Assembly (NCBI RefSeq): GCF_000015025.1
Contig: NC_008578.1
Span: 750,001 to 782,000, forward strand
Direction of reading: 5' to 3'
DNA length: 32,000 nt
Source of the DNA: Acidothermus cellulolyticus 11B
Lineage (GTDB): Bacteria > Actinomycetota > Actinomycetes > Acidothermales > Acidothermaceae
Below the pieces are notes generated by a model that did no database searches, was not told where the DNA came from, and saw only the letters and a list, made by a program, of their open reading frames with translations. The position numbers and the translations under genes are program-made. Shown here piece after piece: positions 1-19,455 of the stretch (its first letter is position 1; every line of letters begins with the position of its first letter).

Positions 1-294
1 AGAACCGTGGTCGTGGGCACGGCGGACGAATTGTCGGTGACCGGGCTTACCGGCGTCCGTCCCATCTGGTGCGGGCCGCCACCGGACGCGCCGCTGGAGT
101 GCACCGTCCAGTACCGAGCGCACGGCGCGGCGGCGCCCGCGGTCGTTGAGCTCCGCGGTGACGAGGTCGACGTGGAGTTCCGCGCGCCCGTTCGCGGCGT
201 GGCGCCCGGTCAGGCGGCGGTTTTCTACGCGGACACCCGCGTTCTCGGCTCGGCGACCATCGCACGTACCCGCCGTGCGGCCGTGGGTTCGTGA
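1..294 (+). CDS. mnmA: tRNA-specific 2-thiouridylase MnmA/TrmU, C-terminal fragment (5' end lies outside the window)
   Basis: Frame 1 is open from the window edge to the stop at 292-294. The translation (...RPIWCGPPPDAPLECTVQYRAHG...VRGVAPGQAAVFYADTRVLG...) looks like the C-terminal barrel domain of MnmA with its GxAPGQAAVFY motif. Position upstream of ligA agrees with mycobacterial synteny. Confidence 0.8.
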   Translation, partial: RTVVVGTADELSVTGLTGVRPIWCGPPPDAPLECTVQYRAHGAAAPAVVELRGDEVDVEFRAPVRGVAPGQAAVFYADTRVLGSATIARTRRAAVGS

Positions 295-298
295 CAAG

Positions 299-423
299 TC
301 CGTGGCGCAAACTGAGGGACTAACGACTCCGTGGCGCAGCCCGTATGTATTTCTCTTTCGGTTTATCTCTCGGGTTGCGTTGCTCCCGGCGGTATTTCTT
401 TCCGGCTGCATTGCTCCGCACGG
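299..423. repeat. Repeat-bearing, unusually T-rich convergent intergenic region between mnmA and merA
   Basis: An 11-bp direct repeat TCCGTGGCGCA occurs at 299-309 and 328-338. An imperfect tandem unit follows: GTATTTCTCTTTCGG...TTGCGTTGCTCC (347-386) and GTATTTCTTTCCGG CTGCATTGCTCC (392-417). Local G+C is clearly lower than the surroundings. Confidence 0.55.
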
Positions 424-470
424 CACCGCAGCGGGCGCCGCGGCGGATGTCACGGCGATGTCGCGGCGGA

Positions 471-1877: not shown

Positions 1878-2095
1878 GGCACGCTCCTCGAGATATTCGG
1901 ATATGCGGACCAACACCCTCCACTCTGACTCCGACCCGACGGACGCAGGCCAGCCTGCCGGCGACGAGCCGCTGCCTCAGGTGCTGGCGCACGAGGGGCG
2001 TGAACGCTGAGCCGGTCGCGCCGGAAACAATTCCGTTGGGGGAGCGATCGGCGTACGCGACGCCGCCGATCGGGGCGGTGGGCAGGCTGACCGAC

Positions 2096-2752
2096 TCAGA
2101 TCGGGAGCAGGGCCTGACGCATTCGGCGTGCCAGCCAGTCGCGGAACGTGGATTCCGGCCAGCTCCGTTGCAGGACGAGCGCGGCATAGTGCGCGGGGTC
2201 GTTGAAGAACCACAGCGTGTCGGTCGCCTGCCGTGTGGTGAGCCCGGGGGCTAGATCCCCAAGCTTCTGTAGGTGGGTGACCACCATCGCTGCACCCGCC
2301 AGCCGGTTAGCCTGCAAGGTCTGCCACAGCTCGGCGGCTTCAGGTGCGTCGTCGGCGGCCCTGCGGACGACCTCGAAGAGCCGCGCCGCTCGACGGCCGA
2401 TGATGACACAGACCTCCGCATAGGCATCCAGCGCTGCTCCGGGCGTGGCCGCCTCCCACACCGGTCTGAACCACGGCCTATCGGCGACGGCGACCGGTTG
2501 ATCGTCACCGGCGAGTGCTTGGTCGAGAATCTGCCGGAGAAGTGCCGATTTTGCACCGAAGGCGGCAAAAACGGTGGGTCGCGCGACCCCGGCAGCGGCC
2601 GCGATGTCGGCGAGCGAGGTGGCGGTGTAACCGCGTTCGACGAAAAGCTCGCTCGCCGCCGCCACGATCGCCTGCCGGGTACGTCGTGCGTTCTCGTCCC
2701 GTGTCGGTGACCGGTATTGCCGGCGGGTTCGGTTGGCCTTGACATCACTCAC
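2096..2752 (-). CDS. TetR/AcrR-family transcriptional regulator
   Basis: 218 aa with a GTG start. The N-terminal HTH region (RRTRQAIVAAASELFVERGYTATSLADIAAAAGVARPTVFAAFG) is typical of TetR. It is divergent from the cupin gene and co-oriented with merA. Confidence 0.85.
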   Translation of the reverse strand: MSDVKANRTRRQYRSPTRDENARRTRQAIVAAASELFVERGYTATSLADIAAAAGVARPTVFAAFGAKSALLRQILDQALAGDDQPVAVADRPWFRPVWEAATPGAALDAYAEVCVIIGRRAARLFEVVRRAADDAPEAAELWQTLQANRLAGAAMVVTHLQKLGDLAPGLTTRQATDTLWFFNDPAHYAALVLQRSWPESTFRDWLARRMRQALLPI

Positions 2753-2765
2753 GGTTCTGCGATAC

Positions 2766-2790
2766 TAGCAGTCTATTCAGTAGACAGTGC
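2766..2790. promoter_or_regulatory. Candidate TetR operator, an inverted repeat in the divergent tetR/cupin promoter region
   Basis: GTCTA (2771-2775) TTCAG TAGAC (2781-2785) is a perfect 5-bp dyad, with partial outer arms AGCA/TGCT. It sits in an AT-rich 59-bp gap between the two start codons. Confidence 0.4.
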
Positions 2791-2811
2791 TATATCGAAA
2801 GTGAGGCTGTC

Positions 2812-3303
2812 ATGGCTGAGACGCCGTCGACCGGTCCCATCCTGCGCCGCAGCGGTGAAGGCGAAGCGTTCTGGTTTCTCGGGAATCTCGCGACGATCAA
2901 GGCCGCCGGGACCGAGACCCGCGGCGCGCTCACGCTCGTCGAATTCCTTAATCCGCCGGGCTTTGCCCCACCCCTGCATCGGCACCTGGACGAGGACGAG
3001 ATGTTCTACATCCTGGCCGGCAGCGCCGAGTTCCACTGCGACGACGAGGTGTTCACGGCGGGTCCCGGGGATTTCGTCCTGCTGCCCGCCCAAATGCCGC
3101 ACACGTTCCTGGTCGGCGCCGGTGAGCCGTTGCGGGCGCTGCAACTCACCACGCCGTCGGGTTTCGAAGGGTTTGCCGCAGCCGTCGGCGAGCCGGCTCC
3201 TGAACGCCGGTTACCGGACCCCGGGCCGGTCGATGTCGGACTGCTCCAAGCCGCCGCGGCGCGGCACCGTATCGAGCTGCTCGGCCCGCCGCCGCGTCCG
3301 TGA
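2812..3303 (+). CDS. Cupin-domain protein
   Basis: 163 aa, ATG preceded by GTGAGG. Cupin motifs PPLHRHLDEDEMFYILAG and GDFVLLPAQMPHTF. High GC3. Confidence 0.8.
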   Translation: MAETPSTGPILRRSGEGEAFWFLGNLATIKAAGTETRGALTLVEFLNPPGFAPPLHRHLDEDEMFYILAGSAEFHCDDEVFTAGPGDFVLLPAQMPHTFLVGAGEPLRALQLTTPSGFEGFAAAVGEPAPERRLPDPGPVDVGLLQAAAARHRIELLGPPPRP

Positions 3304-3342
3304 CCTGGCGGCGGCCGATCCGGTTGACCGTCCGGCGCAGGT

Positions 3343-3372
3343 CCAGCCTGCGCAAGGCCAACCTGCGGAAGG
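3343..3372. repeat. 15-bp tandem repeat x2 (CCAGCCTGCGCAAGG / CCAACCTGCGGAAGG)
   Basis: Direct reading gives 13 of 15 identical positions. The CCAGCCTGCG core also occurs in the gatC-gatA spacer. Confidence 0.6.
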
Positions 3373-3437
3373 CGAACCCGGCCCGCGATCATGGTCAGCG
3401 CTGAGCAGTCGGCGCAGGCTCGGTTAGCCTCGGTCCC

Positions 3438-6678
<3,241 letters not shown>

Positions 6679-6797
6679 CCGACTGGACAATCGCCTTATT
6701 CGCCCGGGCGTCGCGGGTTTCCCGGTCCGATGTCGCGCTGGTCGGCTATACTCCCGTACCGCCGTCCACGTCCGCCCGCGAGAGTGCTGGAGTGTCC

Positions 6798-8225
6798 ATG
6801 CCCGGCGAGCCAATGCCTGTGGTCACGGCCGGCGTACGTCCACGCGACAGACGGCGATTTTTCGGCGACACGGAACCACGTACGTTCCTGGCCGTCTGTC
6901 TTGCGCTCTTCGCGGTCGCAGCGGTTCTCGTGCTCAGCGCCATTGCGCGGGGGAAGACCCTATCGTTATTCGACGAGGCGACGCACGCGGATTACGCGTA
7001 CCGAATCGCCCACGGACAGATTCCCGCCCGCGGAACTCCGTTGGCGCCGGAAATTCTGCGTGAATGGTCGTGTCGCGGCGGCGTTACCGGCCTCCATCTT
7101 CCGCCGTGCGACAGCTCGACACCGCCGGTTCCGTCGCAGTATCCCGGCCGGGGCGAGGATTACAACTTCGGTCATCCCCCGCTCTATTACGCCATTACCG
7201 GCGTCATCGCCCGCGGGTTGGGCGTTTTTCTGCCCGGTCCGCACTTCATCACGCTGGCGCGTCTCGTCGGTCTGCTCTGGCTCTTTGCCGCCATGGTGAC
7301 GTTGTATGCGGCGATTCGCCGGTTCGGCGGCGGCGTGCTGTTCGCCGCAGCGGGTGCGGCTCTTCTTCCGCTCGTCCCTGGTGTGCTGCACGCCTCGAGC
7401 ACGGTGAACAACGATGCCGCTGCTCCGCTCGCCGGAAGTATTGCGGCACTGCTGCTGGCCCGTTTGCTCATTGACGGTGCCACCGGCTGGCTTGTGCCGG
7501 TGCTTGCGACGTTTCTCGTGACGGCGACGAAGGTCCTCAACGCCCTACCGATGCTGCTTGTCGCCGCGGTCTGCGTCGTCCTGGCCGTCGCGGGAGACCG
7601 GGCGGCACGCTGGCCGATTCACGTCTCGCTCGCGCACCGGCGTCGCCAACTCCTCGTTCTCGCCGGCGGGATCGTCCTGGCCTTTCTCGTCGTCTACCAA
7701 GGGTGGAACCTGTTTCAGGCGCATCGCGGCGCGCAGCATTGGGTCAGTCCGGTCGCCGGAATAAGCGGCAGGCCGATCAAGGGGCTGCCCTTCGCCGAAT
7801 TGTTCAGCACGTTGTTCACCGGTTTCTCCATGGTGATAACGAACTATTACCTGCAGCCGTCCGTCGACGGCGAGACGATCACGCTCTGGGCGCGGTTGCT
7901 CGCATTCGTGGTCATCGCCGGGCCGCTGTTGGTGATGGTGACCTCTGCGCGCCGGAGCGCGCGATGGATATTTGGTCTCGGCGCGCTCGCCGGCCTGGTC
8001 GCGTATCCGCTTGCGGTGGAGCTTCAGGCTTTCGTGCAGTCCGGCGAGTACTTCCCAAGCGTTGCCGGCCGCTACGGCATGAGCGTCGTGCCCTGGCTCG
8101 CCGCGTGCCTCGCGTTGGCCTGCTGCGCGCGGGGCGCGGGAAGGGTGCTGGTGGCGTTCAGCGGCATCGGGTTCGTCGTCATGACCCTCGCCGTGACGGG
8201 TGTGTTCTCACTCGGGCCGGCCTGA
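6798..8225 (+). CDS. Polytopic integral membrane protein, possibly GT-C-fold (ArnT/PMT/DUF2142-like) glycosyltransferase
   Basis: About 475 aa from ATG 6798 (GTG 6792 and ATG 6813 are alternatives). About 12 hydrophobic segments. The first loop carries FDEATHADYAYR and GHPPLYYAITG, which is reminiscent of GT-C enzymes. High GC3. Confidence 0.65.
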   Translation: MPGEPMPVVTAGVRPRDRRRFFGDTEPRTFLAVCLALFAVAAVLVLSAIARGKTLSLFDEATHADYAYRIAHGQIPARGTPLAPEILREWSCRGGVTGLHLPPCDSSTPPVPSQYPGRGEDYNFGHPPLYYAITGVIARGLGVFLPGPHFITLARLVGLLWLFAAMVTLYAAIRRFGGGVLFAAAGAALLPLVPGVLHASSTVNNDAAAPLAGSIAALLLARLLIDGATGWLVPVLATFLVTATKVLNALPMLLVAAVCVVLAVAGDRAARWPIHVSLAHRRRQLLVLAGGIVLAFLVVYQGWNLFQAHRGAQHWVSPVAGISGRPIKGLPFAELFSTLFTGFSMVITNYYLQPSVDGETITLWARLLAFVVIAGPLLVMVTSARRSARWIFGLGALAGLVAYPLAVELQAFVQSGEYFPSVAGRYGMSVVPWLAACLALACCARGAGRVLVAFSGIGFVVMTLAVTGVFSLGPA

Positions 8226-8294
8226 ATGGTGCAGGCGCGGCGGCCGCCTGCCCGCTCGGGGTCGAGGCGCTGGTCGCGTCGCTAGGATGACCGC

Positions 8295-8591
8295 GTGCCC
8301 CGAGTTACCCGTGCCGACGTTGCTCACCTTGCCCGGCTCTCCCGACTCGCTCTCACCGAGGCCGAGCTTGACCGTTTCGCCGGCCAGCTCGACGTCATCC
8401 TTGACGCGGTGGCGAAAGTCTCTTCGGTCGCCGGCTCCGACGTACGCCCGACCTCGCACCCGCTTCCGTTGACCAACGTCTACCGGGACGACGAGGTCCG
8501 GCCCTCCCTACCGGTGGGAGAGGTGCTGGCGGCCGCGCCGGCGGTGGAGGACCAGCGGTTCAAGGTCCCGCGGATTCTGGAGGAAGAGTGA
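8295..8591 (+). CDS. gatC: Asp/Glu-tRNA amidotransferase subunit C
   Basis: 98 aa, GTG start with AGGA upstream. The sequence [29 protein letters not shown]...FKVPRILE is typical of GatC. Confidence 0.95.
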
Positions 8592-8596
8592 TCACA

Positions 8597-8700
8597 CCGG
8601 CCCAGCCTGCGGCGACCGTTGGGGGAGTGCCGGGCCAGCTTGCGGTGGCCGTCGGGAAGTGCCGTGGACGTCGGGGAGTGCCGTTCCTGCCTGCGGCGGC
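8597..8700. repeat. Imperfect tandem repeat of about 32 bp (two full units plus partial units) filling the gatC-gatA spacer
   Basis: Unit 1 (8597-8629) is CCGGCCCAGCCTGCGGCGACCGTTGGGGGAGTG. Unit 2 (8630-8661) is CCGGGCCAGCTTGCGGTGGCCGTCGGGAAGTG. Truncated units follow: CCGTGGACGTCGGGGAGTG, then CCGTTCCTGCCTGCGGCGGCG. Confidence 0.65.
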
Positions 8701-8718
8701 GTTCCAGCGAGGACGGCG

Positions 8719-10236
8719 ATGAGTGACCTGATTCGGCGGACCGCGGTCGAGCTCGCAGCGATGATCGCCGCCCGCGAGGTGTCAGCGGAGGAGGTCACCC
8801 GGGCGCACCTGGACCGTATCGCCGCGGTTGATCCCGCCGTGCACGCGTTTCTCTACGTCGATGCCGATGGCGCGCTGACCGCCGCCCGGGCGGTTGACGC
8901 CAGACTGGCGGCGGGGGAGAGACTCGGACCACTCGCCGGCGTCCCCCTTGCGCTCAAGGATGTGTTCACGACGCGCGGCATGCCGACCACCTGCGGCTCG
9001 AAGATTCTCGAAGGGTGGATCCCGCCATACGACGCGACGGTGGTGCAAAAAATCCGGGACGCCGGAATCGTCATTCTCGGCAAGACGAACATGGACGAAT
9101 TCGCGATGGGGTCGTCGACGGAGAATTCCGCATTCGGCCCCACCCGCAATCCTTGGGATTTGTCGCGTATTCCCGGCGGCTCATCCGGCGGCAGCGCGGC
9201 CGCGGTCGCGGCGTTCGAGGCGCCGCTGGCCATCGGTACTGACACGGGAGGGTCGATTCGGCAGCCGGCGGCCGTGACGGGCATTGTCGGCACCAAACCC
9301 ACGTACGGCGGCGTGTCGCGGTACGGCCTGGTCGCTTTCTCGTCGTCCCTCGACCAAGCGGGTCCGTTCGCCCGCACCGTGTTGGATGCCGCGTATCTGC
9401 ATGCCGCCATTGCGGGCCACGATCCGCGTGACGCCACGTCGATCGACGCTCCGGTGCCGGACGTCGTCGCCGCTGCCCGCAACGGGGACGTTCGCGGGTT
9501 GCGGATCGGGGTGGTGCGCGAATTGGACGGTGACGGATATGACCCCGGCGTCCGGCACCAATTCCATCAGGCGGTGAAGCTCCTCGCCGATCTCGGCGCC
9601 GACGTCGGTGAAGTGAGTTGCCCGCATTTCGAGTACGCCCTCGCCGCCTATTACCTCATCGCGCCCAGCGAGTGTTCGTCCAACCTCGCGCGATTCGACG
9701 CGATGCGGTACGGTTTGCGGCTCGGTGACGACGGCACCCGCACCGCGGAAGACGTCATGGCGCTCACCCGCGCGGCCGGCTTCGGCGCCGAGGTGAAACG
9801 CCGCATCATGCTGGGCACGTACGCGCTTTCCAGCGGTTACTACGAGGCCTATTACGGGTCGGCCCAGAAGGTCCGCACCCTCATCATCCAGGACTTCGCC
9901 GCCGCGTTCGAGAAATTCGACGTCCTCATCTCTCCGACCACCCCGACCACGGCTTTCCCGCTTGGCGAACGGGTGGACGACCCGCTGAAGATGTACCTGG
10001 CCGACCTCGACACGATTCCCGTGAATCTCGCCGGCAACGCCGCCATGTCCGTACCGATCGGCTGCTCGCCGGACGACGGCCTCCCGGTCGGCCTTCAGAT
10101 CATGGCACCGGTGTTGGCGGATGACCGGCTGTACCGGGTCGGTGCGGCGCTGGAAGCGGCGTACCGGGAACGCACCGGCCGGCTGCTCATTGAGGACGTA
10201 CCGGATCCTGCCGCGAATCAGGAGGGAGCCGCGTGA
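8719..10236 (+). CDS. gatA: Asp/Glu-tRNA amidotransferase subunit A
   Basis: 505 aa from ATG 8719 (GAGGA 5 nt upstream). Amidase signature [13 protein letters not shown]...[13 protein letters not shown]. The track start at 8659 would translate the repeat array. Confidence 0.95.
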
Positions 10237-11750
10237 CGACGATCGCTCCGGATGAGGTGCTGGATTTTGCCGAGGCGGTCGAGGAATTCGAACCGGTCTT
10301 CGGGCTGGAGACGCACGTCGAGCTGGCCACCCGGTCGAAGATGTTCTGCGGATGCCCGACCACGTTCGGCGCCGAGCCGAACACGCAGGTCTGCCCGGTC
10401 TGCCTCGGCCTGCCCGGCTCGCTTCCGGTCGCCAATCGGGCCGCCGTCGAGGCGACGATCCGTATCGGCCTTGCCCTGAACTGCACGATCGCCTCCTGGT
10501 GCCGGTTCGCCCGGAAGAACTACTTCTATCCCGACATGCCGAAGAACTTTCAGATTTCCCAGTACGACGAGCCGCTCTGCACCGACGGGTACCTGGACGT
10601 TGAGGTCGACGACCAGGTGTTCCGGATCGGGATCGAACGCGTCCACCTGGAGGAAGACACCGGAAAATCCGTGCACATCGGCGGCGCGACCGGTCGTATT
10701 CACGGCGCCGACTATTCGCTCGTCGATTACAACCGCGCGGGCATCCCCCTCGTCGAGATTGTCACGAAGCCCGTGGTCGGCACCGGGCAACTCGCTCCGG
10801 CGGTGGCCCGGGCGTACGTGACCGAACTGCGGGAAGTGATGCGGACACTGGGTGTCTCCGACGTGCGGATGGAGCAAGGCTCGTTGCGCTGCGACGTCAA
10901 TCTTTCCGTGCACCGCAAGGGTACGACGGCGTGGGGGACTCGCAGCGAAACGAAGAACGTCAACTCGCTCCGCTCGGTGGAGCGGGCGGTGCGCTACGAA
11001 ATTCAACGGCAGGCCGCTGTGCTGCGCGCCGGCGGCCGGGTGGTGCAGGAGACGCGCCATTTTCACGAGGATTCGGGTGTCACGACACCCGGGCGCAGCA
11101 AGGAACAGGCCGAGGATTATCGCTATTTTCCGGAGCCGGATTTGGTTCCGCTCGCCCCGGATCCGCAGTGGGTGGCAAGCCTGCGGGCCGCCCTTCCGGA
11201 ATTGCCGCTGCAGCGCCGCCGGCGGTTGCGCGAGGCGTGGGGTCTCACCGCGGCGGAGATGCAGGCGGCGCTGAATGCGGGCGCCGTCGAGTTGGTTGCG
11301 GCGACGGTTGCGGCGGGCGCGAGTCCCCGCGACGCGTACAAGTGGTGGCTGGGTGAACTCGCCCGGCGCGCCAATGAAGCCGGCGTCGAGCTGGCCGCAC
11401 TGCCCATAACCCCCGAGGACGTAGCCGAGCTCGCCCGGCTGGTGAGCACCGGACGGCTCACCGACAAGCTGGCCCGGGCGGTGCTCGACGGCGTTCTTGC
11501 CGGCGAGGGACGCCCGGAAGAGATCGTCGCCTCCCGCGGCCTTGAAGTCGTCTCGGATGACAGCGCTCTTCGCACCGCCGTGGACGCTGCGATCGCCGCA
11601 CAACCGGATGTCGCGGAGAAAATCCGTAACGGCAAGGTAGCCGCGGTCGGTGTCCTTGTCGGCGCGGTGATGAAGGCGACACACGGACGGGCCGACGCGG
11701 CGAAGGTGCGGGCTCTCATTCTGGAAACTCTTGGTGTCAGCGACGCATGA
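10233..11750 (+). CDS. gatB: Asp/Glu-tRNA amidotransferase subunit B
   Basis: 505 aa. The GTG start overlaps the gatA stop (GTGA). Motif [20 protein letters not shown]...[13 protein letters not shown]. Confidence 0.95.
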
Positions 11751-11798
11751 GGCAATGGGTGCCTTGACGTTGACGGCTGTCGGGCAGCGCCACCGGCA

Positions 11799-12725
11799 AT
11801 GAGCGAGGCCGAGGTCCACGTCTGGGTGCCCTACCCGGAAATGGCGGCGGATCTGCGCGGTCTGTCAGCGCGGCTGCGGGTCGGCCTTTTCACCGGAACA
11901 GAGAGTCCCGCCGACGTGCCGGAGCCGCACATTCTCGTGGCGCCGTACACCCTCGGCACGAAAAAACTTGCGGCGGCGCTGCGGTCACCCCGGCTGCGGG
12001 TCATCCAGCTTCTGACCGCCGGTTACGAGCAGGTGGCGCCGCTGGTTCCCGACGGTGTCCTCCTCTGCAACGCGCGCGGCGTCCATGACGCGAGCACGGC
12101 GGAACTCGCCGTCGCGTTGATGCTGGCCGCGCTGCGCGGAATTCCCGATTTCGTTCGAGCGCAGCAAACCGGAGAGTGGCGGCATGCCACGTATCCCTCG
12201 CTGGCGGACCGCACCGTGTTGATCCTCGGTTACGGATCCATCGGCGAGGCGTTGGAGCGCCGTCTCGCCGGCTTCGAGGTACGCATCCTGCGGGTCGCCC
12301 GGCGGCCCCGCCCCGGAGTCCACGGCATCGAGGAGGTCTGGGGTTTGCTCGGCGAAGCGGACGTGGTCGTCGTCCTCACCCCACTGACCGCCGAGACCAG
12401 GCATCTCGTTGACGAGAAATTCCTGGCGCGGATGCGGCCTGGTGCGCTGCTGGTCAACGTCGCTCGCGGGGCGGTGGTGGACACCGAGGCGCTGGTGCAT
12501 GCTGTTGCGGCAGGACGCATTCGCGCCGCCCTCGACGTGACAGATCCCGAGCCGCTCCCGCCGGACCATCCCCTCTGGCGGCTCCCCGGGGTGCTGATTT
12601 CGCCGCACGTCGGCGGGGACACCACCGCGTTTCTCCCGCGCGCCCGGCAACTCATCGTCGACCAGATTTCGCGGTACCTGAACGGCGAACCGCTGCGTAA
12701 CGTTGTCGCCGGTGACACTGATTGA
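11799..12725 (+). CDS. D-isomer-specific 2-hydroxyacid dehydrogenase family protein
   Basis: 308 aa. NAD-binding LILGYGSIGEALERRL and the catalytic region NVARG...ALDVTDPEP...SPHVGG. Confidence 0.85.
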   Translation: MSEAEVHVWVPYPEMAADLRGLSARLRVGLFTGTESPADVPEPHILVAPYTLGTKKLAAALRSPRLRVIQLLTAGYEQVAPLVPDGVLLCNARGVHDASTAELAVALMLAALRGIPDFVRAQQTGEWRHATYPSLADRTVLILGYGSIGEALERRLAGFEVRILRVARRPRPGVHGIEEVWGLLGEADVVVVLTPLTAETRHLVDEKFLARMRPGALLVNVARGAVVDTEALVHAVAAGRIRAALDVTDPEPLPPDHPLWRLPGVLISPHVGGDTTAFLPRARQLIVDQISRYLNGEPLRNVVAGDTD

Positions 12726-12794: not shown

Positions 12795-12833
12795 GGGACT
12801 TTCGTCCCGAGTGAAGTCCGTGACGCTCGGGAC
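12795..12833 (+). promoter_or_regulatory. Two mutually exclusive hairpins in the por leader region
   Basis: GGGAC-TTTC-GTCCC (12795-12808) shares its 3' arm with GTCCCGAG-N14-CTCGGGAC (12804-12833). Both stems are perfect. Confidence 0.3.
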
Positions 12834-12969: not shown

Positions 12970-13554
12970 ATGTGGCAGATTCGGGTGCACGGTAGGGGCG
13001 GACAAGGCGTCGTCACCGCGGCTGAGCTGCTCGCCGATGCAGCCTTTCGCGACGGATACGAGGTACAGGCTTTTCCCAGTTTCGGTTCCGAGCGGATGGG
13101 CGCCCCGGTAACGGCGTACTGTCGCTTGGACACACTGCCGATCCGTATCCGAGAGCCTGTCGTTGACGCCGATGCTCTTCTTGTCATTGACGCATCGTTG
13201 TTGCGTCTGCCGGAGACGCTCGCGGGGTTGAGGACGGGCGGGTGGGTTCTCGTGAATTCCGCTCGACCTCCGCAGCAGCTCGGCGTGACATCCACGGCGT
13301 CCTCCGACGTACACATTCGTTGGGCGACGGTGCCGGCGACGGCGCTGGCCCGACGCTATCTGGGACGTGCGGTGCCCAACGCGCCAATGCTCGGCGCTTT
13401 TGCAGCACTTACCCGACTGGTCTCGTTGACGGCAATTGAGGACGCACTGTCGGATCGCTTCACGGCCCCTATCGCTGAGCAGAATATCCAGGCGGCCCGT
13501 GCAGCCTTTGCTTCTCTTCAGCAGGTGGTGACGAGCGATGCGCAGTCAGCGTGA
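12970..13554 (+). CDS. porG: 2-oxoacid:ferredoxin oxidoreductase, gamma subunit
   Basis: 194 aa from ATG 12970, with GGGAGG at 12954-12959. Motifs IRVHGRGGQGVVTAAELLADAA and FPSFGSERMGAPV. Many A/T-ending codons. Confidence 0.85.
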   Translation: MWQIRVHGRGGQGVVTAAELLADAAFRDGYEVQAFPSFGSERMGAPVTAYCRLDTLPIRIREPVVDADALLVIDASLLRLPETLAGLRTGGWVLVNSARPPQQLGVTSTASSDVHIRWATVPATALARRYLGRAVPNAPMLGAFAALTRLVSLTAIEDALSDRFTAPIAEQNIQAARAAFASLQQVVTSDAQSA

Positions 13555-14728
13555 AGCCTCCCGGGCCATAGCCGAGGTGGTCGGTCGATGCCGTCCGCAG
13601 GTCGTTCCCGCTTATCCGATCACTCCGCAGACCCACATCGTGGAAGCACTCGGCGCCATGATCCGGGCCGGCACCCTTTCGCCGTGCGTCTTTCTTACCG
13701 TCGAATCAGAATTCGCGGCGATGTCAGCGGCGATCGGTGCCTCGTTCGCCGGATCCCGCACATACACCGCGACTGCCAGTCAAGGGCTTCTGTACATGGC
13801 TGAAGCGCTGTTCAACGCGTCCGGTTTAGGGGCACCGATCGTCATGACGGTCGCCAATCGCGCGGTCGGTGCGCCGATCAACATTTGGAACGATCAGAGC
13901 GATGCGATGAGCCTGCGGGATTGCGGCTGGATCCAGCTCTACGCCCCGGACAATCAAGCTGCGGTCGACCTGCATGTTCTGGCGTTCCGCGTCGCGGAGG
14001 CTCTCTCACTTCCGGTCATGGTGTGCATGGACGGTTTCGTCCTCACCCACGCCTTCGAACCATTGGCTGTTCCGACACAAGCCCAGGTCGACAATTTTCT
14101 TCCTCCCTTTCGGCCGCGGCAGGTTCTCGATCCCGGCGATCCGGTGACCATCGGTGCCATGGTCGGCCCGGAGGCCTTCACCGAGGTGAAGTATCTCTCG
14201 GCGCAGCGGCTCGACGCGGCGGTGAACGTGTTCGAGTGGTTCGCACAGGAATACGCCGAGATAACCGGCCGCCGTTATCACGCGGTGGAAAGCTACCGCA
14301 TCGAACACGCGGACACGGTTGTTGTCGCCCTTGGTTCGGCGGCGGGAACGTTGTACGAGCTTGCAGACGCAGTCCCTGGTGTCGGGGTTCTTGTCATCAC
14401 GATGTATCGCCCATTTCCGGCGCGGGTCGTCCGGGGACTTCTCGCCGCAGCCCGACGCGTCATCGTGCTCGAACGCGCCTTTGCACCGGGAGCCGGCGGC
14501 ATCGTCACCGCCGATGTGCGTGCCGCGGTCGCCGGAACGAGCGCGATGGTGCATACCGTCATTGGGGGACTGGGTGGACGTCCGATCCGGCTGGCCTCGT
14601 TGCGCGCCGTGGTAACCGCCGATGCGCTTCCGGATATTCATTTCCTCGATCTACGCGAGGACGTCGTTCGCCGTGAATGGGAGCGGGATCCCACGGTCTC
14701 GGCGATGGAGGTGCGCCATGTCCGCTGA
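13538..14728 (+). CDS. porA: 2-oxoacid:ferredoxin oxidoreductase, alpha subunit
   Basis: 396 aa, overlapping porG by 17 nt. Motifs AYPITPQT, ESEFAAMSAAIGASFAG and TATASQGLLYM. Confidence 0.9.
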   Translation: MRSQREASRAIAEVVGRCRPQVVPAYPITPQTHIVEALGAMIRAGTLSPCVFLTVESEFAAMSAAIGASFAGSRTYTATASQGLLYMAEALFNASGLGAPIVMTVANRAVGAPINIWNDQSDAMSLRDCGWIQLYAPDNQAAVDLHVLAFRVAEALSLPVMVCMDGFVLTHAFEPLAVPTQAQVDNFLPPFRPRQVLDPGDPVTIGAMVGPEAFTEVKYLSAQRLDAAVNVFEWFAQEYAEITGRRYHAVESYRIEHADTVVVALGSAAGTLYELADAVPGVGVLVITMYRPFPARVVRGLLAAARRVIVLERAFAPGAGGIVTADVRAAVAGTSAMVHTVIGGLGGRPIRLASLRAVVTADALPDIHFLDLREDVVRREWERDPTVSAMEVRHVR

Positions 14729-15701
14729 CAACGGACGGTCCCTTTCGCTGACAACCCGCACGGCTGGCGGCAGACTGGTTCCCCCCGCGCGGCGTGCGGA
14801 ACAGGCTAATCCACACCGACGCAACGCACTGACCTCGGGTCACCGCGCCTGCCAGGGATGCGGAGTTGCTCTCGCTGCTCGTACCGTCGTTGATGCTGCG
14901 TACCGCGCCTCCGGGGGAAAACTCGTTGTCGTGACAGCAACCGGATGTCTTGAGGTGTTCTCAACACCCTATCCGGAGAGCGCGTGGCGGGTTCCTTGGT
15001 TGCACTCGTTGTTCGCTAATGCGGCATCGGTGGCAAGCGGTGTGGCGGCCGCGCTGTACGCCCAGGGACGGGAGGACGTTCGAGTCCTTGCGCAGGGCGG
15101 GGACGGAGCGACCGTCGACATCGGCCTCGCCTGCCTCTCCGGCATGTTCGAACGAGGCGATGACGTCCTGTATGTGTGTTACGACAACGAGGCGTATATG
15201 AATACCGGCATTCAGCGCTCGGGTGCGACACCGCCATATGCGCGGACCGCAACAACGGAAGCGGTCGGAGACGAGCCGGGAAATCCGCCTGGGACGGGAA
15301 AGGACTTGCCGCGTATCGCGCTCGCGCACAGCATTCCCTACGTAGCGACGGCGACCATAGGCGATATTCACGACCTTGAGGCCAAAGTGGTGAACGCGAT
15401 GGGTGTGCGTGGAGCCCGATACCTGCACGTCCTGACACCCTGTCCCCTTGGTTGGGGGAGCGGACCTGCTGAGACGATCGCATTGGCCCGCCTTGCCCAG
15501 CGTTCCGGTTTGTTCCCGGTTTTCGAAGCACGGGACGGGGAAATCACCTCGGTGCTTCCGATTCGGCGGCCGGTTCCGGTCGAGGAGTACCTCCGGCCGC
15601 AACGCCGATTCGCCCATCTGTTCGCCGATCCGGACCGTCGCCTGCTCACCAGGTTGCAGGAATTCGCCGACAGCACGAAGGCGCGGTACGGCTTGATGTG
15701 A
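14718..15701 (+). CDS. porB: 2-oxoacid:ferredoxin oxidoreductase, beta (TPP and [4Fe-4S]) subunit
   Basis: 327 aa from ATG 14718, overlapping the porA stop. Cys motif GHRACQGCG...ATGC and TPP motif GGDGATVDIG...YDNEAYMNTG. Confidence 0.9.
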   Translation: MSADNGRSLSLTTRTAGGRLVPPARRAEQANPHRRNALTSGHRACQGCGVALAARTVVDAAYRASGGKLVVVTATGCLEVFSTPYPESAWRVPWLHSLFANAASVASGVAAALYAQGREDVRVLAQGGDGATVDIGLACLSGMFERGDDVLYVCYDNEAYMNTGIQRSGATPPYARTATTEAVGDEPGNPPGTGKDLPRIALAHSIPYVATATIGDIHDLEAKVVNAMGVRGARYLHVLTPCPLGWGSGPAETIALARLAQRSGLFPVFEARDGEITSVLPIRRPVPVEEYLRPQRRFAHLFADPDRRLLTRLQEFADSTKARYGLM

Positions 15702-15710
15702 AGGGGGTGC

Positions 15711-17345
15711 GTGATGGATTTACCGTTCGCGGTGAGTCTTGCACCGGCTTCGAGCAGATCGAACCACACGGGTACGTGGCGCACCGATCGACCCGTCTAT
15801 ATCGATGCCTGGCCGCCGTGTAATGCGGCATGTCCCGCTGGTGAATCCGTCCAGGGGTGGCTTTACCACGCCGCAGCAGGCGATTGGGAGATCGCCTGGC
15901 GCCAGCTTGTCGCAGTGAATCCGTTTCCGGCCGTCATGGGACGGGTCTGCTATCACCCGTGCGAGGCGCGGTGCAATCGCCGGGAATTCGATGAGGCCGT
16001 CGCCATCAATGCGGTCGAACAATTCCTTGGAGATGAGGCGCTGCGCCGTGGTTGGCGCCTGCCGTCACCCGGTGCACCGACAGGTCATCGTGTGCTGATC
16101 GTCGGTGCCGGGCCGGCAGGTCTTGCTGCGGCGTATCACCTGCGGTTGCTCGGACATGAGGTGGAGCTTCACGACGCCGAAGCCGAGCCCGGTGGGATGA
16201 TGCGCTACGCCATCCCGACGTTCCGGCTCTCCCGTCGAGTCCTCGACGCAGAAATTGAACGCGTCCTCGAGTTGGGAATTCACTACCATCCGCGGTCACG
16301 GATTTCCGACCTCAGCGCCGTCAGCGGATATGACGCCATATTCGTAGCCGTCGGTGCTCAGCGTCCGCATCGGGTCCAACTCCCCGCCGATCCTGCGGCG
16401 CGGATTCTCGACGCGTTGGACCTGCTCCGGCGTACCGCGCAAGGCGAACGGCCGGGATTAGGGCGGCGGGTCGCCGTCTACGGCGGCGGCAATACCGCGA
16501 TGGACGCTGCGCGCACCGCGAAACGCCTCGGCGCTGACGAGGTGGTCGTCGTGTACCGACGCACCCGGGAGCGCATGCCCGCTCACGACACAGAGGTGGC
16601 CGAGGCCGTCGAGGAAGGGGTGGCTTTCGAGTGGTTGTCGACGGTGACCCACGTGGAGCCGGGAAGCCTTCGCCTGGAACGAATGGAGCTCGACGCAGCC
16701 GGGAAACCTCGACCAACCGGGCGGTTTGTCGCGCGTCCGGCGGACACTCTGATCCTCGCCTTGGGACAGGAGGTGGACGCCGGGCTGCTGCGTGCGTTGC
16801 CGGGCGTGCGTTGTGCCGACGGCGGCGTGGCGGTGGACGCGTCCCTCATGACCGGAGCGGCCGGCGTCTTTGCCGGCGGGGACATGATTCCTGGTGAACG
16901 CACCGTCACTGCCGCGATCGGTCACGGGCGACGGGCCGCGCTCTCCATCGACGCGTGGCTCCGGGGGCGGCAACCGCCGTCCGAACCGCTTCGGGAATCG
17001 GCCGCTTTCGCGTCACTGAACACGTGGTACTACGACGAATCACCCGCGGCACAGCGCAACCGCCTGCCACGAGCCCGCCGGCTCGGGGGGTTTGGCGAGG
17101 TGGTTCGCGGACTTGACCCGGCACACGCGTTGGCCGAGGCCCGACGATGCTTCTCCTGCGGCAATTGCTTCCAGTGCGACAACTGCTACGCCGTCTGCCC
17201 CGACGCGGCGGTTCTCAAGGTCGAGTCCGGGCACGGCTATGCGATCGACCTCGATTACTGCAAGGGATGCGGGTTATGCGTCGCCGAGTGTCCGGTGGGT
17301 GCCATTCGCACGGTGCCCGAACCGGGCACCGAGGTCGATGCATGA
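15711..17345 (+). CDS. Fusion protein: PorD-like N-terminal arm, GltD/NfnB-like NAD(P)H-FAD oxidoreductase and a C-terminal 2x[4Fe-4S] ferredoxin domain
   Basis: 544 aa from GTG 15711 (ATG 15714 is 6 nt after AAGGGGG). Motifs: HTGTWRTDRPV (PorD arm); PPCNAACPAGE and GRVCYHPCEARCNR (GltD-type Fe-S domain); VLIVGAGPAGLAAAYHL; GGMMRYAIPTFRL; VAVYGGGNTAMDAARTAKRLGA; VFAGGDM; C-terminal CFSCGNCFQCDNCYAVCP and DYCKGCGLCVAECP. Confidence 0.85.
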   Translation: MMDLPFAVSLAPASSRSNHTGTWRTDRPVYIDAWPPCNAACPAGESVQGWLYHAAAGDWEIAWRQLVAVNPFPAVMGRVCYHPCEARCNRREFDEAVAINAVEQFLGDEALRRGWRLPSPGAPTGHRVLIVGAGPAGLAAAYHLRLLGHEVELHDAEAEPGGMMRYAIPTFRLSRRVLDAEIERVLELGIHYHPRSRISDLSAVSGYDAIFVAVGAQRPHRVQLPADPAARILDALDLLRRTAQGERPGLGRRVAVYGGGNTAMDAARTAKRLGADEVVVVYRRTRERMPAHDTEVAEAVEEGVAFEWLSTVTHVEPGSLRLERMELDAAGKPRPTGRFVARPADTLILALGQEVDAGLLRALPGVRCADGGVAVDASLMTGAAGVFAGGDMIPGERTVTAAIGHGRRAALSIDAWLRGRQPPSEPLRESAAFASLNTWYYDESPAAQRNRLPRARRLGGFGEVVRGLDPAHALAEARRCFSCGNCFQCDNCYAVCPDAAVLKVESGHGYAIDLDYCKGCGLCVAECPVGAIRTVPEPGTEVDA

Positions 17346-17490: not shown

Positions 17491-19455
17491 ATGGGAGAGC
17501 GCGTGTCCAGGGCAGCGACGGAATTCGGCGAATTCGCCGCGAGCTTCGCGGATCCGCTGTTCCGGCTCGGCTATCTCCTGGTGTGCGCGGAACCGACCCC
17601 GTCGCTGCCTGACGTGACCCTCGCCCGGACGGTGACCGTCCGGGCGCTGCTCGCTACCCGCCGGCATTGGCGTGACGTGGCGTCCGGCGCCGCGCCGGAG
17701 AGCCTGGCCGTGGCGGCGTTGTTCCGAGCAGTATCCCGACCCCGCCGTACCCCGTCTGCCAGTCGATCGGCGGCTGGCGCCCAGCCCGCCGTCCGTGCCG
17801 GCGACCGGCTGCACGCCGTCGGTGTCAGCGACCCCCGGGCGGGTCTCGGGGCGCCGGTGGCGGCGCCGTCCGACGACGACGCCGAGCTGCGACGCGCACT
17901 CGATGCCATGTGGTGCTCGCTGTCACCGGCGGCACGCGCCGTCTTCCTCGCCGAGCACGGCGTCTCCCTCTTCCATTGGATGGCCGACCTCGACCTTCCC
18001 GACGTCTTCGGCCACCGGCGGCGGGCGAAGCACTCCGCCGAATGGCAGGCCGCCTGGACCGGCCTCCTGCGCCAGGCGGGCACGCGGGGCGGTGCGGACG
18101 TCGACCAGCTCCTCCGTGCTGTCCTGGCCGAGCGGGCGGCCTGGCCCCCAACGCCGCCGGGCGTCGTGCCGGAGGTCGAGCAGCGGCAACGGGTCCGCGT
18201 CCGATGGACCGCCGCGGTCGGTGCGACGCTCGTCCTGGCACTGGTCGCCGGCGGTCTTGCCTTCGCCCGCCCGCAGACCGCCACACAGCGCGCCGGTCAG
18301 CACCATCCAACGGCTGCGCCGGCCTCTGCCGGTCCCATCGTCAACTGGCCGGTCCGCGGCAACGCGGCCGCCGTCGACCTCGTCGTCCAGCTGCGGGCGC
18401 AATTCGCCCGGGACCATCCGGACGCCTATGGGCCGGTGCAGGTTCTCCTGGTCGCGGACGTTCCGTGGTTCCGCCTCGCCTATGTGGTCGCGAGAACGGC
18501 AAGCGGTGTCGTCAACGCGTGGTACTACGGGCCGGCCGGCTCCCAAGACCTCCAGCAAGGCTATGTCTCCTACGGTCAGCCGCTCGCGGCGCCCGAGGGT
18601 TCCCCGTCCCCGACGGCTCCCGAGGGTTCCCCGTCCGCGACGGCTCCCGCTGTGGTCGCTGCAGCGCTTGCGGATCCGAGCGGCCATGTCGCTCTCGTCG
18701 CCCTGACCGCCCCCCAGCTCCTCAGCGGGGAGCTCCGCACCGGCACCACTACGCTGCCGACGCGGCTGGCCGCGTCCGACGGCGCGATCGTGGCGGACAT
18801 CAGTGCGGTGTACGCGCCAGGGGAGACGCTCCGGCTCATTGCCGGCGGCCGGACGGTCTGGGAGGGCCCGCTCGCCCTCTTGCAGCTGGCGGCCCGCCCC
18901 ACCGCCTCGGCACTGGCCCGGTTCCCCGGCGGTCAGGGAGCGGAACTCATCCCCGTCCAGCGGGGCACCGCCAACACCCCCGAACTCTTCCGTGCCCTGC
19001 AGATCCTGGACGCCTGGCGGCGCACCGGGGAGCTGGCGTCGTCCGCCGAGCCCACTGTGCTCTGGGGCGGGGCTGACGGCGAAGGCACCCAGCTCCTCAT
19101 CCTGCGGGCCAAAACCCTGCACCGGCCGGACCTGCTCATCGTCGTCTGGGGAGCGGCCCCGGAGGCGGCCGGGGAGTATCTCCTGCGCCCGGACCTCCCC
19201 GACTATCCGCTGGCGTTCAGCTATCTCGGGGCCGGCGGCAACCGGATCGGCGTCCTCACTCCCCTGGGGGTGACCAGTGTGGGCTTGTACGTCCGGGGGG
19301 CTGTGCGCATGACCGCCCCGGTGGATGCGACCGGCTTTGCCACGCTGCCCGCGGTGGTCGAACCGACCAGCCTTGGCGACGGGTACGCCTCGCTGATCCT
19401 GTACGACGCCCAGGGCAAGGACGTCGGTCGGGTCGCGGTTCCACCGCCGGTGTGA
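17491..19455 (+). CDS. Hypothetical single-pass membrane protein with a degenerate ECF-sigma-like N-terminal region
   Basis: 654 aa with an ATG start. GC3 is about 83% by hand count over the first 60 codons, consistent with this frame being the coding one. The antisense 551-aa ORF is Arg/Gly-rich shadow. One TM segment (WTAAVGATLVLALVAGGLAFA). The N-terminus (FGEFAASFADPLFRLGYLL...RRHWRDV, then LSPAARAVFLAEH) loosely follows a sigma region-2 / region-4 pattern. Confidence 0.7.
   Translation: MGERVSRAATEFGEFAASFADPLFRLGYLLVCAEPTPSLPDVTLARTVTVRALLATRRHWRDVASGAAPESLAVAALFRAVSRPRRTPSASRSAAGAQPAVRAGDRLHAVGVSDPRAGLGAPVAAPSDDDAELRRALDAMWCSLSPAARAVFLAEHGVSLFHWMADLDLPDVFGHRRRAKHSAEWQAAWTGLLRQAGTRGGADVDQLLRAVLAERAAWPPTPPGVVPEVEQRQRVRVRWTAAVGATLVLALVAGGLAFARPQTATQRAGQHHPTAAPASAGPIVNWPVRGNAAAVDLVVQLRAQFARDHPDAYGPVQVLLVADVPWFRLAYVVARTASGVVNAWYYGPAGSQDLQQGYVSYGQPLAAPEGSPSPTAPEGSPSATAPAVVAAALADPSGHVALVALTAPQLLSGELRTGTTTLPTRLAASDGAIVADISAVYAPGETLRLIAGGRTVWEGPLALLQLAARPTASALARFPGGQGAELIPVQRGTANTPELFRALQILDAWRRTGELASSAEPTVLWGGADGEGTQLLILRAKTLHRPDLLIVVWGAAPEAAGEYLLRPDLPDYPLAFSYLGAGGNRIGVLTPLGVTSVGLYVRGAVRMTAPVDATGFATLPAVVEPTSLGDGYASLILYDAQGKDVGRVAVPPPV
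18592..18645 (+). repeat. In-frame 27-bp tandem duplication inside the 654-aa CDS
   Basis: CCCGAGGGTTCCCCGTCCCCGACGGCT and CCCGAGGGTTCCCCGTCCGCGACGGCT match at 26 of 27 positions. They encode PEGSPSPTA and PEGSPSATA. Confidence 0.85.

Follow-up and report, generated by a model that had tools for sequence, protein, structure and literature searches.

Which enzyme is encoded by an uninterrupted reading frame whose translation begins and ends like the small iron-sulfur subunit of a 2-oxoacid:ferredoxin oxidoreductase (OFOR) and carries a flavoprotein of the GltD/NfnB type in between? This question is raised by the open reading frame (ORF) at positions 15711 to 17345 of a 32,000-nucleotide stretch of DNA from Acidothermus cellulolyticus 11B, which will be referred to as the window. 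The original prediction, made from the letters of the DNA, had proposed a delta subunit (PorD) into which a GltD-like reductase is inserted, as opposed to a simple end-to-end fusion. Our analysis leads us to consider it probable that the encoded protein of 544 amino acids (aa) serves as the delta subunit in a pyruvate-type OFOR with four subunits (porG-porA-porB-porD, the last of these being the gene in question) and that its internal module, a circularly permuted relative of GltD and NfnB, would turn this complex into a self-contained 2-oxoacid:NADP+ oxidoreductase.

The reading frame itself is continuous, as had been claimed. It comprises 544 open codons without any internal stop, ends with the stop codon at 17343-17345 and starts either with the GTG at 15711 or with the ATG at 15714, a ribosome-binding site (AAGGGGG, 15700-15706) being located by the porB stop codon (15699-15701). 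The sequence motifs quoted at the time are all present at the expected places (Table 1). Codon usage is uniform, too: the G+C content of third codon positions (GC3) ranges from 0.64 to 0.79 in blocks of 100 codons, and neither junction is marked by a sharp break.

The split delta subunit and its permuted insert

Whether the N-terminal segment is an arm of the PorD type or merely the ordinary N-terminus of a GltD-like protein was examined by scanning residues 1-36 alone against 18,950 NCBIfam models, with E values of up to 10 being admitted. Four models are matched and all of them describe OFOR delta subunits, namely PorD_Arch, TIGR02179, the delta subunit of oxalate oxidoreductase and PRK09624. 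The best match, that to PorD_Arch (E=2.4e-4), places residues 7-31 on positions 6-30 of this profile of 85 positions, and the C-terminal 78 residues of the protein occupy its complementary positions 28-84 (59.6 bits). The native protein as a whole scores 70.1 bits with PorD_Arch, which is below the cutoff of 120, and 62.2 bits with TIGR02179, which is barely above the cutoff of 60.05. Upon excision of the intervening residues (construct of residues 1-34 plus 484-544) the PorD_Arch alignment becomes continuous over positions 6-84 and reaches 89.9 bits, the TIGR02179 score amounting to 85.1 bits. When compared with the delta subunit of a structurally solved pyruvate:ferredoxin oxidoreductase (PFOR; chain 9bt4_G of the Protein Data Bank, PDB), the construct of arm and dicluster domain aligns over chain residues 3-83 of 85 with 72 bits; the native C-terminus alone yields 48.9 bits and covers chain residues 32-83. 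The arm of 9bt4_G (residues 3-27), PIGGTCEPGSTLANKTGGWRNFRPVYI, hereby pairs with PFAVSLAPASSRSNHTGTWRTDRPVYI of the window protein. In 18 of 18 diverse family members the arm matches PorD_Arch and solely delta-subunit families are hit; Pro5, Ala7, Leu10, Ser15, Thr20, Gly21, Trp23, Arg24, Arg27 and Tyr30 are invariant among these 18 proteins and, with the exception of Pro5, also in a set of 99 sequences. Alignments to GltD, NfnB, dihydropyrimidine dehydrogenase (DPD) and StnC start only at residues 30-36. Because of this late start and because the arm matches PorD only, we reject its reading as an ordinary GltD N-terminus; the profile matches identify residues 5-31 as an arm specific to OFOR delta subunits.

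The counterpart of the arm is the C-terminal dicluster domain, whose two CxxCxxCxxxCP motifs supply Cys486, Cys489, Cys492 and Cys496 as well as Cys517, Cys520, Cys523 and Cys527. Arm and dicluster domain are not contiguous within a protein of some 80 to 105 aa but are separated by about 451 aa. It might be argued that a ferredoxin domain has simply been appended to the C-terminus of a GltD/NfnB-like protein, the TGxWR segment being an ordinary or chance feature. Indeed, scans with the whole protein reveal PorD likeness for residues 480-537 only, and C-terminal ferredoxin domains are common on GltD-like proteins such as YgfK and PRK12814. Yet, the isolated arm matches nothing but OFOR delta models, at positions complementary to those of the C-terminus, and it aligns with the 9bt4_G arm position by position. 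Moreover, the alignments of GltD and NfnB begin at residues 35-36, with the N-termini that canonical GltD and NfnB themselves possess aligning to residues 449-497. An end-to-end fusion is thus very improbable, and the internal position of the insert, as originally proposed, is confirmed by arm and dicluster domain matching complementary parts of one PorD profile. Foldseek cannot align these two parts across the insert of 450 residues, the fold search bearing on the flavoprotein module only.

Annotation with Pfam and NCBIfam together with alignment of the junctions delimits the PorD flanks and the GltD-type insert. The latter is present where it had been predicted, its length being about 451 aa (residues 35-485) instead of the estimated 430 aa or so. 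Likewise, its identification as a GltD/NfnB-like reductase module was correct, while the notion of a GltD in native order was not, since the module is circularly permuted. Residues 35-114 carry Cys37, Cys41, Cys80, Cys84, Cys88 and the probable cluster ligand Glu103 and correspond to the second part of the GltD-type iron-sulfur (Fe-S) domain. Its first part, Fer4_20 positions 4-29 with the EAxRCxxC half of the first cysteine motif, is found at residues 460-485, i.e. behind the NADPH domain. Taken alone, this displaced fragment matches only Fer4_20 among 24,736 Pfam models (E=0.0035). When it is moved in front of residues 35-118, one Fer4_20 match spanning positions 4-112 results, with a score of 91.4 bits versus 60.8 bits without the fragment, and the same outcome was obtained for 18 of 18 family members tested. 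In HMMER alignments with NfnB of T. maritima (4ylf_B), chain residues 9-43 correspond to residues 449-484 and chain residues 46-465 to residues 36-423 of the window protein; NfnL of P. furiosus produces the same swapped alignment in two pieces. The permutation is seen with the Pfam profile and in the secondary HMMER domains against NfnB only, and a phmmer search of the PDB with residues 427-487 as a single sequence returned nothing meaningful. On the strength of these alignments, the insert of about 451 aa is GltD/NfnB-like but circularly permuted.

The Rossmann domains for FAD and NAD(P)H in the centre of the module (residues 127-420) align throughout with the NADPH-dependent proteins NfnB and StnC, including the YRRT motif, and this region is predicted with a local confidence (predicted local distance difference test, pLDDT) mostly above 90, the overall pLDDT of the model of the 544-aa protein being 85.5. 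The cysteine count fits four [4Fe-4S] clusters: the seven cysteines of the module (37, 41, 80, 84, 88, 480 and 483) together with Glu103 would ligate two of them, which matches NfnB with its seven cysteines and one glutamate, and the eight cysteines of the delta-type dicluster domain would ligate the other two. As the permutation sets the ends of the module side by side, the module can sit as an insert in a host protein. The term "insertion" is used here for the topology, the order of evolutionary events being left aside.

Table 1. Coordinates of the por genes and of the domains and motifs of the 544-aa protein (positions refer to the window, residues to the protein)
Feature	Positions	Strand	Residues	Evidence or remark
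Whole ORF, probable delta subunit with inserted permuted GltD-type module	15711..17345	+	544 aa	NF009410/PRK12771, 702.6 bits (cutoff 516, E=3.7e-211)
Layout of the protein				5-31 PorD arm; 35-114 Fer4_20 positions 30-112; 127-420 FAD/NADPH; ~421-459 low-confidence linker; 460-485 Fer4_20 positions 4-29; 486-537 PorD dicluster
PorD N-terminal arm, PFAVSLAPASSRSNHTGTWRTDRPVYI	15723..15803	+	5-31	Matches OFOR delta models only
Second part of GltD-type Fe-S domain	15813..16052	+	35-114	Fer4_20 positions 30-112 of 113, 60.8-67.3 bits
FAD and NAD(P)H Rossmann domains	16089..16970	+	127-420	Pyr_redox_2, 107.1 bits, residues 127-406
Displaced first part of GltD-type Fe-S domain, ...FGEVVRGLDPAHALAEARRC480FSC483GN	17058..17165	+	450-485	Fer4_20 positions 4-29
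PorD-type 2x[4Fe-4S] dicluster domain	17166..17321	+	486-537	PorD_Arch, TIGR02179
HTGTWRTDRPV			19-29	
PPCNAACPAGE			35-45	
GRVCYHPCEARC			77-88	
GAGPAG			132-137	Rossmann-domain motif
GGMMRYAIPTFRL			161-173	
GGGNTA			258-263	Rossmann-domain motif
YRRT			282-285	Rossmann-domain motif
VFAGGDM			386-392	Contains Rossmann-domain motif FAGGD (387-391)
DYCKGCGLCVAECP			515-528	
porG, OFOR gamma	12970..13554	+	194 aa	From ATG 12970; Pfam POR 141.5 bits; TIGR02175 PorC_KorC 178.6 vs cutoff 81.1
porA, OFOR alpha	13538..14728	+	396 aa	POR_N 216 bits, PFOR_II 60 bits; PorA_Arch 399
porB, OFOR beta	14718..15701	+		Probable start ATG 14718; TPP_enzyme_C; PRK11865 PorB 314.9
Palindrome GGGACTTTCGTCCC, DosR/DevR-like box, possible hypoxia-responsive operator	12795..12808	+		162 nt upstream of porG start

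A widespread family encoded next to porGAB

Over residues 11-537 the 544-aa protein aligns with positions 24-565 of the 566 positions of the curated family model NF009410/PRK12771 ("NAD(P)-binding protein"), PRK12771 formerly having borne the name "putative glutamate synthase small subunit". By this match it is an ordinary member of a curated, generically named family and its architecture is not unique to the window, the family name saying nothing on PorD, split or permutation. More than 8000 full-length relatives (538-551 aa, 55-67% identity) are present in the protein collection, where they go by the names "NAD(P)-binding protein", "glutamate synthase" or "2-oxoacid:acceptor oxidoreductase delta subunit", and a scan of one genome per species found a relative encoded in at least 597 species genomes. 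The nearest named relatives belong to Nakamurella and Jatrophihabitantaceae (about 66% identity). Further hosts among the Actinomycetota are Streptomyces, Cellulomonas humilata, Amycolatopsis dendrobii, Solirubrobacterales, Planktophila and Trebonia, and the Beta-, Alpha- and Gammaproteobacteria contribute Gallionella, Sideroxydans, Rubrivivax, Rhodoferax, Dechloromonas, Bradyrhizobium and Rhodoblastus; a second search revealed a tight clade in Candidatus Accumulibacter, Azonexus and Sulfuritalea. Within the family sample the window protein shares 59-67% identity with 97 members and 97% with one. All 15 Fe-S cysteines as well as Glu103, Arg172 and Arg283-Arg284 are invariant in the 99 sequences.

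These numbers bear on the possibility that separate porD and gltD genes have been joined by a sequencing or assembly error. Apart from its prior plausibility, such an artefact finds a parallel in one related locus alone, in which the C-terminal part lies in a short frame. Against it, a protein of 538-551 aa with 55-97% identity recurs in thousands of independent assemblies, a curated full-length hidden Markov model covers residues 11-537, and a frameshift would be unable to yield a permuted, interleaved domain order. We therefore consider an artefact practically excluded, in agreement with the earlier argument against a sequencing-error fusion.

The three genes tightly packed upstream of the 544-aa gene on the same strand encode the remaining subunits of an OFOR (Table 1). 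The start of porG is taken from the TIGR02175 and POR alignments, which begin at residue 54 of the long ORF, corresponding to the ATG at 12970. The PorB translation harbours CQGC, TGCLE, TPCP and GDGATVDIG...YDNEAYMNTG, i.e. the thiamine pyrophosphate (TPP) site and four cysteines for one [4Fe-4S] cluster. A survey of related loci showed that the one-protein form is common beside porGAB: porG-porA-porB lies directly upstream in every related locus with enough upstream DNA except one (L020, discussed below). In the 32 kb window and, outside the fusion gene, in 83 related loci neither another ORF with a CxxCxxCxxxCP motif nor a stand-alone porD was detected. As it contains the sole ferredoxin-type motifs and is preceded by porGAB, the 544-aa protein most probably supplies the delta function.

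The wider window represents a conserved actinobacterial core region with the gene order ligA, gatA, gatB, 2-hydroxyacid dehydrogenase, por genes, a 654-aa ORF, ilvD, ilvB, ilvN, ilvC and serA. The gene for the D-isomer-specific 2-hydroxyacid dehydrogenase (11799-12725, +) was considered as a member of the operon and rejected, since its pairing with the por genes is not conserved in L001, L084 and L086 and since the DosR-like box lies between it and porG; in principle, the dehydrogenase could supply a 2-oxoacid. The 654-aa ORF directly downstream of the fusion gene (17491-19455, +) has no Pfam match, a GC content of 0.73 and an Ala/Pro-rich translation with a near-duplicate stretch (APEGSPSPT/APEGSPSAT); it was not found beside the operon in the other loci inspected. 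Two further ORFs of the window (345-1865, +, 506 aa, and 6363-8225, +, 620 aa) are without Pfam match at E<=1e-5 and may be spurious frames over opposite-strand genes in DNA of high GC content. In locus L066, which stems from a metagenome-assembled genome (MAG) of Sideroxydans, the dicluster part (around 7460-7620) lies in a short stop-to-stop frame of 123 aa, which points to a pseudogene, a frameshift or a misassembly of this record.

Proposed function, regulation and significance

Upon oxidation of a 2-oxoacid, electrons would first pass from the TPP-bound intermediate to the [4Fe-4S] cluster of PorB and from there to the two clusters of the delta-type domain. These would hand them over to the two clusters of the permuted GltD Fe-S domain, from which they would reach FAD and finally NADP+, leaving as NADPH. 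In sum, pyruvate (or a related 2-oxoacid) and CoA would be converted to acyl-CoA and CO2 with direct reduction of NADP+ and without free ferredoxin. Cys480 and Cys483 of the module are located just ahead of the delta domain, and the closeness of Cys483 to Cys486, three residues further on, suggests tight electronic coupling of module and delta clusters. We infer NADPH to be preferred over NADH, since the YRRT motif, which follows the second Rossmann strand, is common to the NADPH enzymes NfnB and StnC and both Arg283 and Arg284 are invariant. The neighbourhood of pntAB in Streptomyces speaks for NADPH as well. In the Streptomyces sp. HUAS ZL42 locus (L001) the membrane transhydrogenase genes pntAA, pntAB and pntB (9685-12535) are arranged convergently beside the por operon, with genes for universal stress (Usp), CBS and cyclic-nucleotide-binding (cNMP-binding) proteins upstream, which hints at a link of the operon to NADPH/NADH balancing under stress. 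Pyruvate appears the likeliest substrate given that the best subunit models are PorA, PorB and PorC (the first two scoring below cutoff) and that genes for glyceraldehyde-3-phosphate dehydrogenase (GAPDH) and for a phosphoenolpyruvate (PEP)-utilising pyruvate dikinase are located directly upstream in locus L086.

The module need not be the main outlet of the enzyme: NADPH might serve to keep the oxygen-sensitive OFOR clusters reduced or repaired in aerobes, free ferredoxin or flavodoxin being the actual acceptor. The hosts are largely aerobes (Streptomyces, Cellulomonas, Amycolatopsis), and the context of Usp genes and DosR-like boxes is of a stress or hypoxia type, both of which would suit such a role. 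It is at odds, however, with the wiring of the module in series right by the delta clusters (C483-GN-C486), where it would sterically fill the end at which ferredoxin usually docks, and with the lack of a conserved ferredoxin gene nearby in the loci inspected; moreover, in precedents of OFORs coupled to an NAD(P) reductase the latter serves as outlet. We hence rate a repair function as rather unlikely.

A second alternative concerns the direction of electron flow. The complex of PorGAB and the module-bearing delta subunit could be a bifurcating or confurcating OFOR, for example an NADPH-driven pyruvate synthase, in which the NfnB-like flavin splits the electrons of NADPH so that one drives 2-oxoacid synthesis from acyl-CoA and CO2 and the other is passed to a second acceptor of higher potential. 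The glutamate ligand Glu103 is shared with bifurcating NfnB, whereas non-bifurcating StnC possesses a lysine (PMC10482914). Also Arg172, equivalent to Arg201 of NfnB and Arg239 of StnC, is retained in all 99 sequences, and the family occurs in the autotrophs Gallionella and Sideroxydans. In contrast, among the related loci inspected neither an NfnA/PyrK-like gene nor any other gene for a second acceptor is conserved in the operon, one cluster chain only leads away from the flavin, and the hosts are mostly heterotrophic aerobes. In addition, textbook potentials (about -320 to -370 mV for NADPH, about -500 mV for pyruvate synthesis) render NADPH alone thermodynamically implausible as driver. A reductive or bifurcating mode thus seems improbable to us; if it did operate, aerobes and iron-oxidising autotrophs would possess a ferredoxin-free route to low-potential carboxylation.

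Against the preferred assignment as a pyruvate:NADP+ oxidoreductase several observations have to be set. With respect to pyruvate specificity, both the PorA_Arch score (399 versus an equivalog cutoff of 550) and the PorB score (314.9 versus 405) are below threshold. Locus L020 (Trebonia sp. MAG, 1-11183) contains the fusion gene, but none of porG, porA and porB lies in the 6 kb ahead of it or in the 3.5 kb behind it. Genes for a Usp-domain protein, an acetyl-CoA hydrolase/transferase, two Zn alcohol dehydrogenases and a P-type cation ATPase are found next to it instead; in this case the protein may work on its own or join an OFOR whose genes are located elsewhere. In the predicted model residues 1-20, i.e. 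the arm, have a pLDDT of 41-55 and thus lend no structural backing to a contact with the OFOR core, low values being expected for a segment which packs on partner subunits. In its Glu-ligated proximal cluster and its conserved Arg172 the module resembles NfnB, where these features go along with electron bifurcation, so that a simple two-step flavin reduction is not guaranteed. Finally, neither a paper on the NF009410 family nor a functional study was found in the literature searched, the coverage of which is incomplete, particularly for older papers; "PRK12771" is named there in one unrelated preprint only.

As to regulation, the palindrome GGGACTTTCGTCCC ahead of porG is the sole match to GGGACN4GTCCC in the window, compared to 0.12 expected by chance, and we take it to resemble the DosR/DevR-OsdR operator consensus. 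When no more than one mismatch is allowed, such boxes show an enrichment of about 7-fold within the 400 nt preceding porG in related actinobacterial loci, similar ones being present in L006, L009, L028 and L033, and two exact boxes (5493-5506 and 5668-5681) precede the orphan fusion gene of L020. The neighbouring genes in related loci, which code for Usp proteins, an Rv2632c-like protein, Zn alcohol dehydrogenases and a P-type ATPase, presumably resemble members of the mycobacterial DosR and the Streptomyces OsdR regulons. The OsdR regulon of Streptomyces is described in PMC5069765. In view of box and neighbourhood, the por operon is possibly induced by hypoxia.

Situated between gatB and ilvD, the operon is compositionally distinct within an otherwise conserved core region: GC3 amounts to 0.72 in the fusion gene and to 0.67-0.71 in porG, porA and porB, as compared to 0.80-0.88 in the flanking genes ligA, gatA, gatB, ilvD, ilvB, ilvN, ilvC and serA. 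The family is common to Actinomycetota and Proteobacteria at 55-62% identity. The lowered GC3 and the identity across phyla would both fit a horizontal spread of the whole operon in one piece.

Should the proposed function hold true, a compact, ferredoxin-independent pyruvate (2-oxoacid):NADP+ oxidoreductase would operate in many aerobic or facultative bacteria, among them Streptomyces, Cellulomonas, Amycolatopsis, freshwater acI Actinobacteria, Candidatus Accumulibacter, Dechloromonas and Gallionella, and would provide acetyl-CoA and NADPH in one step. In current metabolic models these genes are either disregarded or counted as a PFOR that depends on ferredoxin, accompanied by an isolated "glutamate synthase small subunit". 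Members of the family are common and have already been catalogued, albeit with a name that tells little, and their predicted function extends a known theme; the value of the assignment lies in naming a large, unstudied enzyme family of well-known bacteria. Furthermore, the protein offers a clear natural case of a domain insertion enabled by circular permutation. The occurrence of the same NADPH/FAD/2x[4Fe-4S] module in NuoG-like proteins (Stn, NfnABC) and in PorD speaks for a portable "NADPH plug" that can be fitted to iron-sulfur wires, a matter of interest for enzyme evolution and for the engineering of redox proteins. With the DosR-like box and the stress genes nearby, an involvement in the hypoxic survival of Actinomycetota lends itself to direct testing.

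Comparison with known systems

The closest relatives of known structure are StnC (8oh5_C) and the "NfnA" subunits of NfnABC (9bov_A and 9n5u_A), which give both the best sequence matches (280-308 bits) and the best Foldseek matches (TM-score normalised to the query, TMq, of 0.71-0.74). They contain the same permuted module, colinear with residues 30-489 of the window protein and including the trailing EAxRCxxCG; residues 30-527 are aligned by residues 99-574 of 9bov_A, 99-623 of 8oh5_C and 100-506 plus 556-611 of 9n5u_A. In StnC of the Sporomusa ovata Stn transhydrogenase the GltD-like region (aa 102-565) binds two [4Fe-4S] clusters, FAD and NADPH and has been described as a domain insertion into a NuoG-like protein (PMC10482914). 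As in the window protein, the module of StnC and NfnABC sits in another Fe-S protein and passes electrons in or out along a chain of clusters (PMC10482914). The ligand of the proximal cluster is Lys170 in StnC and a glutamate at the equivalent site of NfnB (PMC10482914); Glu103 of the window protein aligns with this lysine. The two systems differ in that StnC and NfnABC have a NuoG/FdhF-like host protein, belong to a HydBC-type bifurcating complex and lack an OFOR partner. Pfam detects no NuoG/FdhF-like host domain in the 544-aa protein, and its neighbours are porGAB instead of HydBC-type subunits.

With canonical GltD, NfnB (NfnL) and the N-terminal module of DPD the window protein shares the Fer4_20, FAD and NADPH folds, the YRRT motif and the glutamate ligand, the corresponding structures being matched with 186-231 bits in sequence and with TM-scores normalised to the target (TMt) of 0.73-0.78 in fold. 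In contrast to GltD and NfnB, where the first 29 or so positions of the Fe-S domain precede the FAD/NADPH part, these positions follow the NADPH domain in the window protein, which is moreover without a GltB or NfnA partner. It clearly misses the GltD equivalog cutoffs (TIGR01316, 251.8 versus 471.75; TIGR01318, 219.4 versus 482.95). Of the NCBIfam models, PRK12814 and YgfK align on through the trailing segment, whereas those of canonical GltD end at about residue 418.

Stand-alone PorD (TIGR02179/NF040684; 9bt4_G) has in common with the window protein the arm S-x-x-A-N-x-T-G-x-W-R-x-x-R-P-V-Y, the two CxxCxxCxxxCP motifs and the location of its gene in a por operon. The differences consist in the gene order, which is G-A-B-delta in the window, and in the inserted flavoprotein of about 451 aa, which ends two to four residues ahead of the first cysteine of the clusters.

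With regard to the predicted chemistry, OFORs that possess a flavoprotein outlet to NAD(P)+ are represented by the pyruvate:NADP+ oxidoreductase (PNO) of Euglena and Cryptosporidium and by the phenylglyoxylate:NAD+ oxidoreductase PadEFGHI. A further flavin-linked OFOR, the 2-oxoglutarate:NADP+ oxidoreductase of Azoarcus evansii, was reportedly described by Ebenau-Jehle and co-workers in 2003. All of these would share with the window system the transfer of electrons from an OFOR core via a bound flavin to the pyridine nucleotide without free ferredoxin. The Pad models themselves are missed (PadE, 124.5 versus 300; PadG, 214.4 versus 700; PadI, 176.6 versus 700), that of PadF reaching at most 48.5 versus 150 even with the excised arm and dicluster, and no model of PadH, the FAD subunit of phenylglyoxylate dehydrogenase, is among the matches of the Fe-S/FAD region. 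The outlet of PNO is a C-terminal module resembling cytochrome P450 reductase, and the Pad enzyme employs separate delta and FAD subunits. As far as its sequence permits a classification, the 544-aa protein is neither a canonical PorD nor a canonical GltD/NfnB nor of the StnC type, and it differs from the PNO, Azoarcus and Pad enzymes in having a permuted GltD-type module embedded within the delta subunit.

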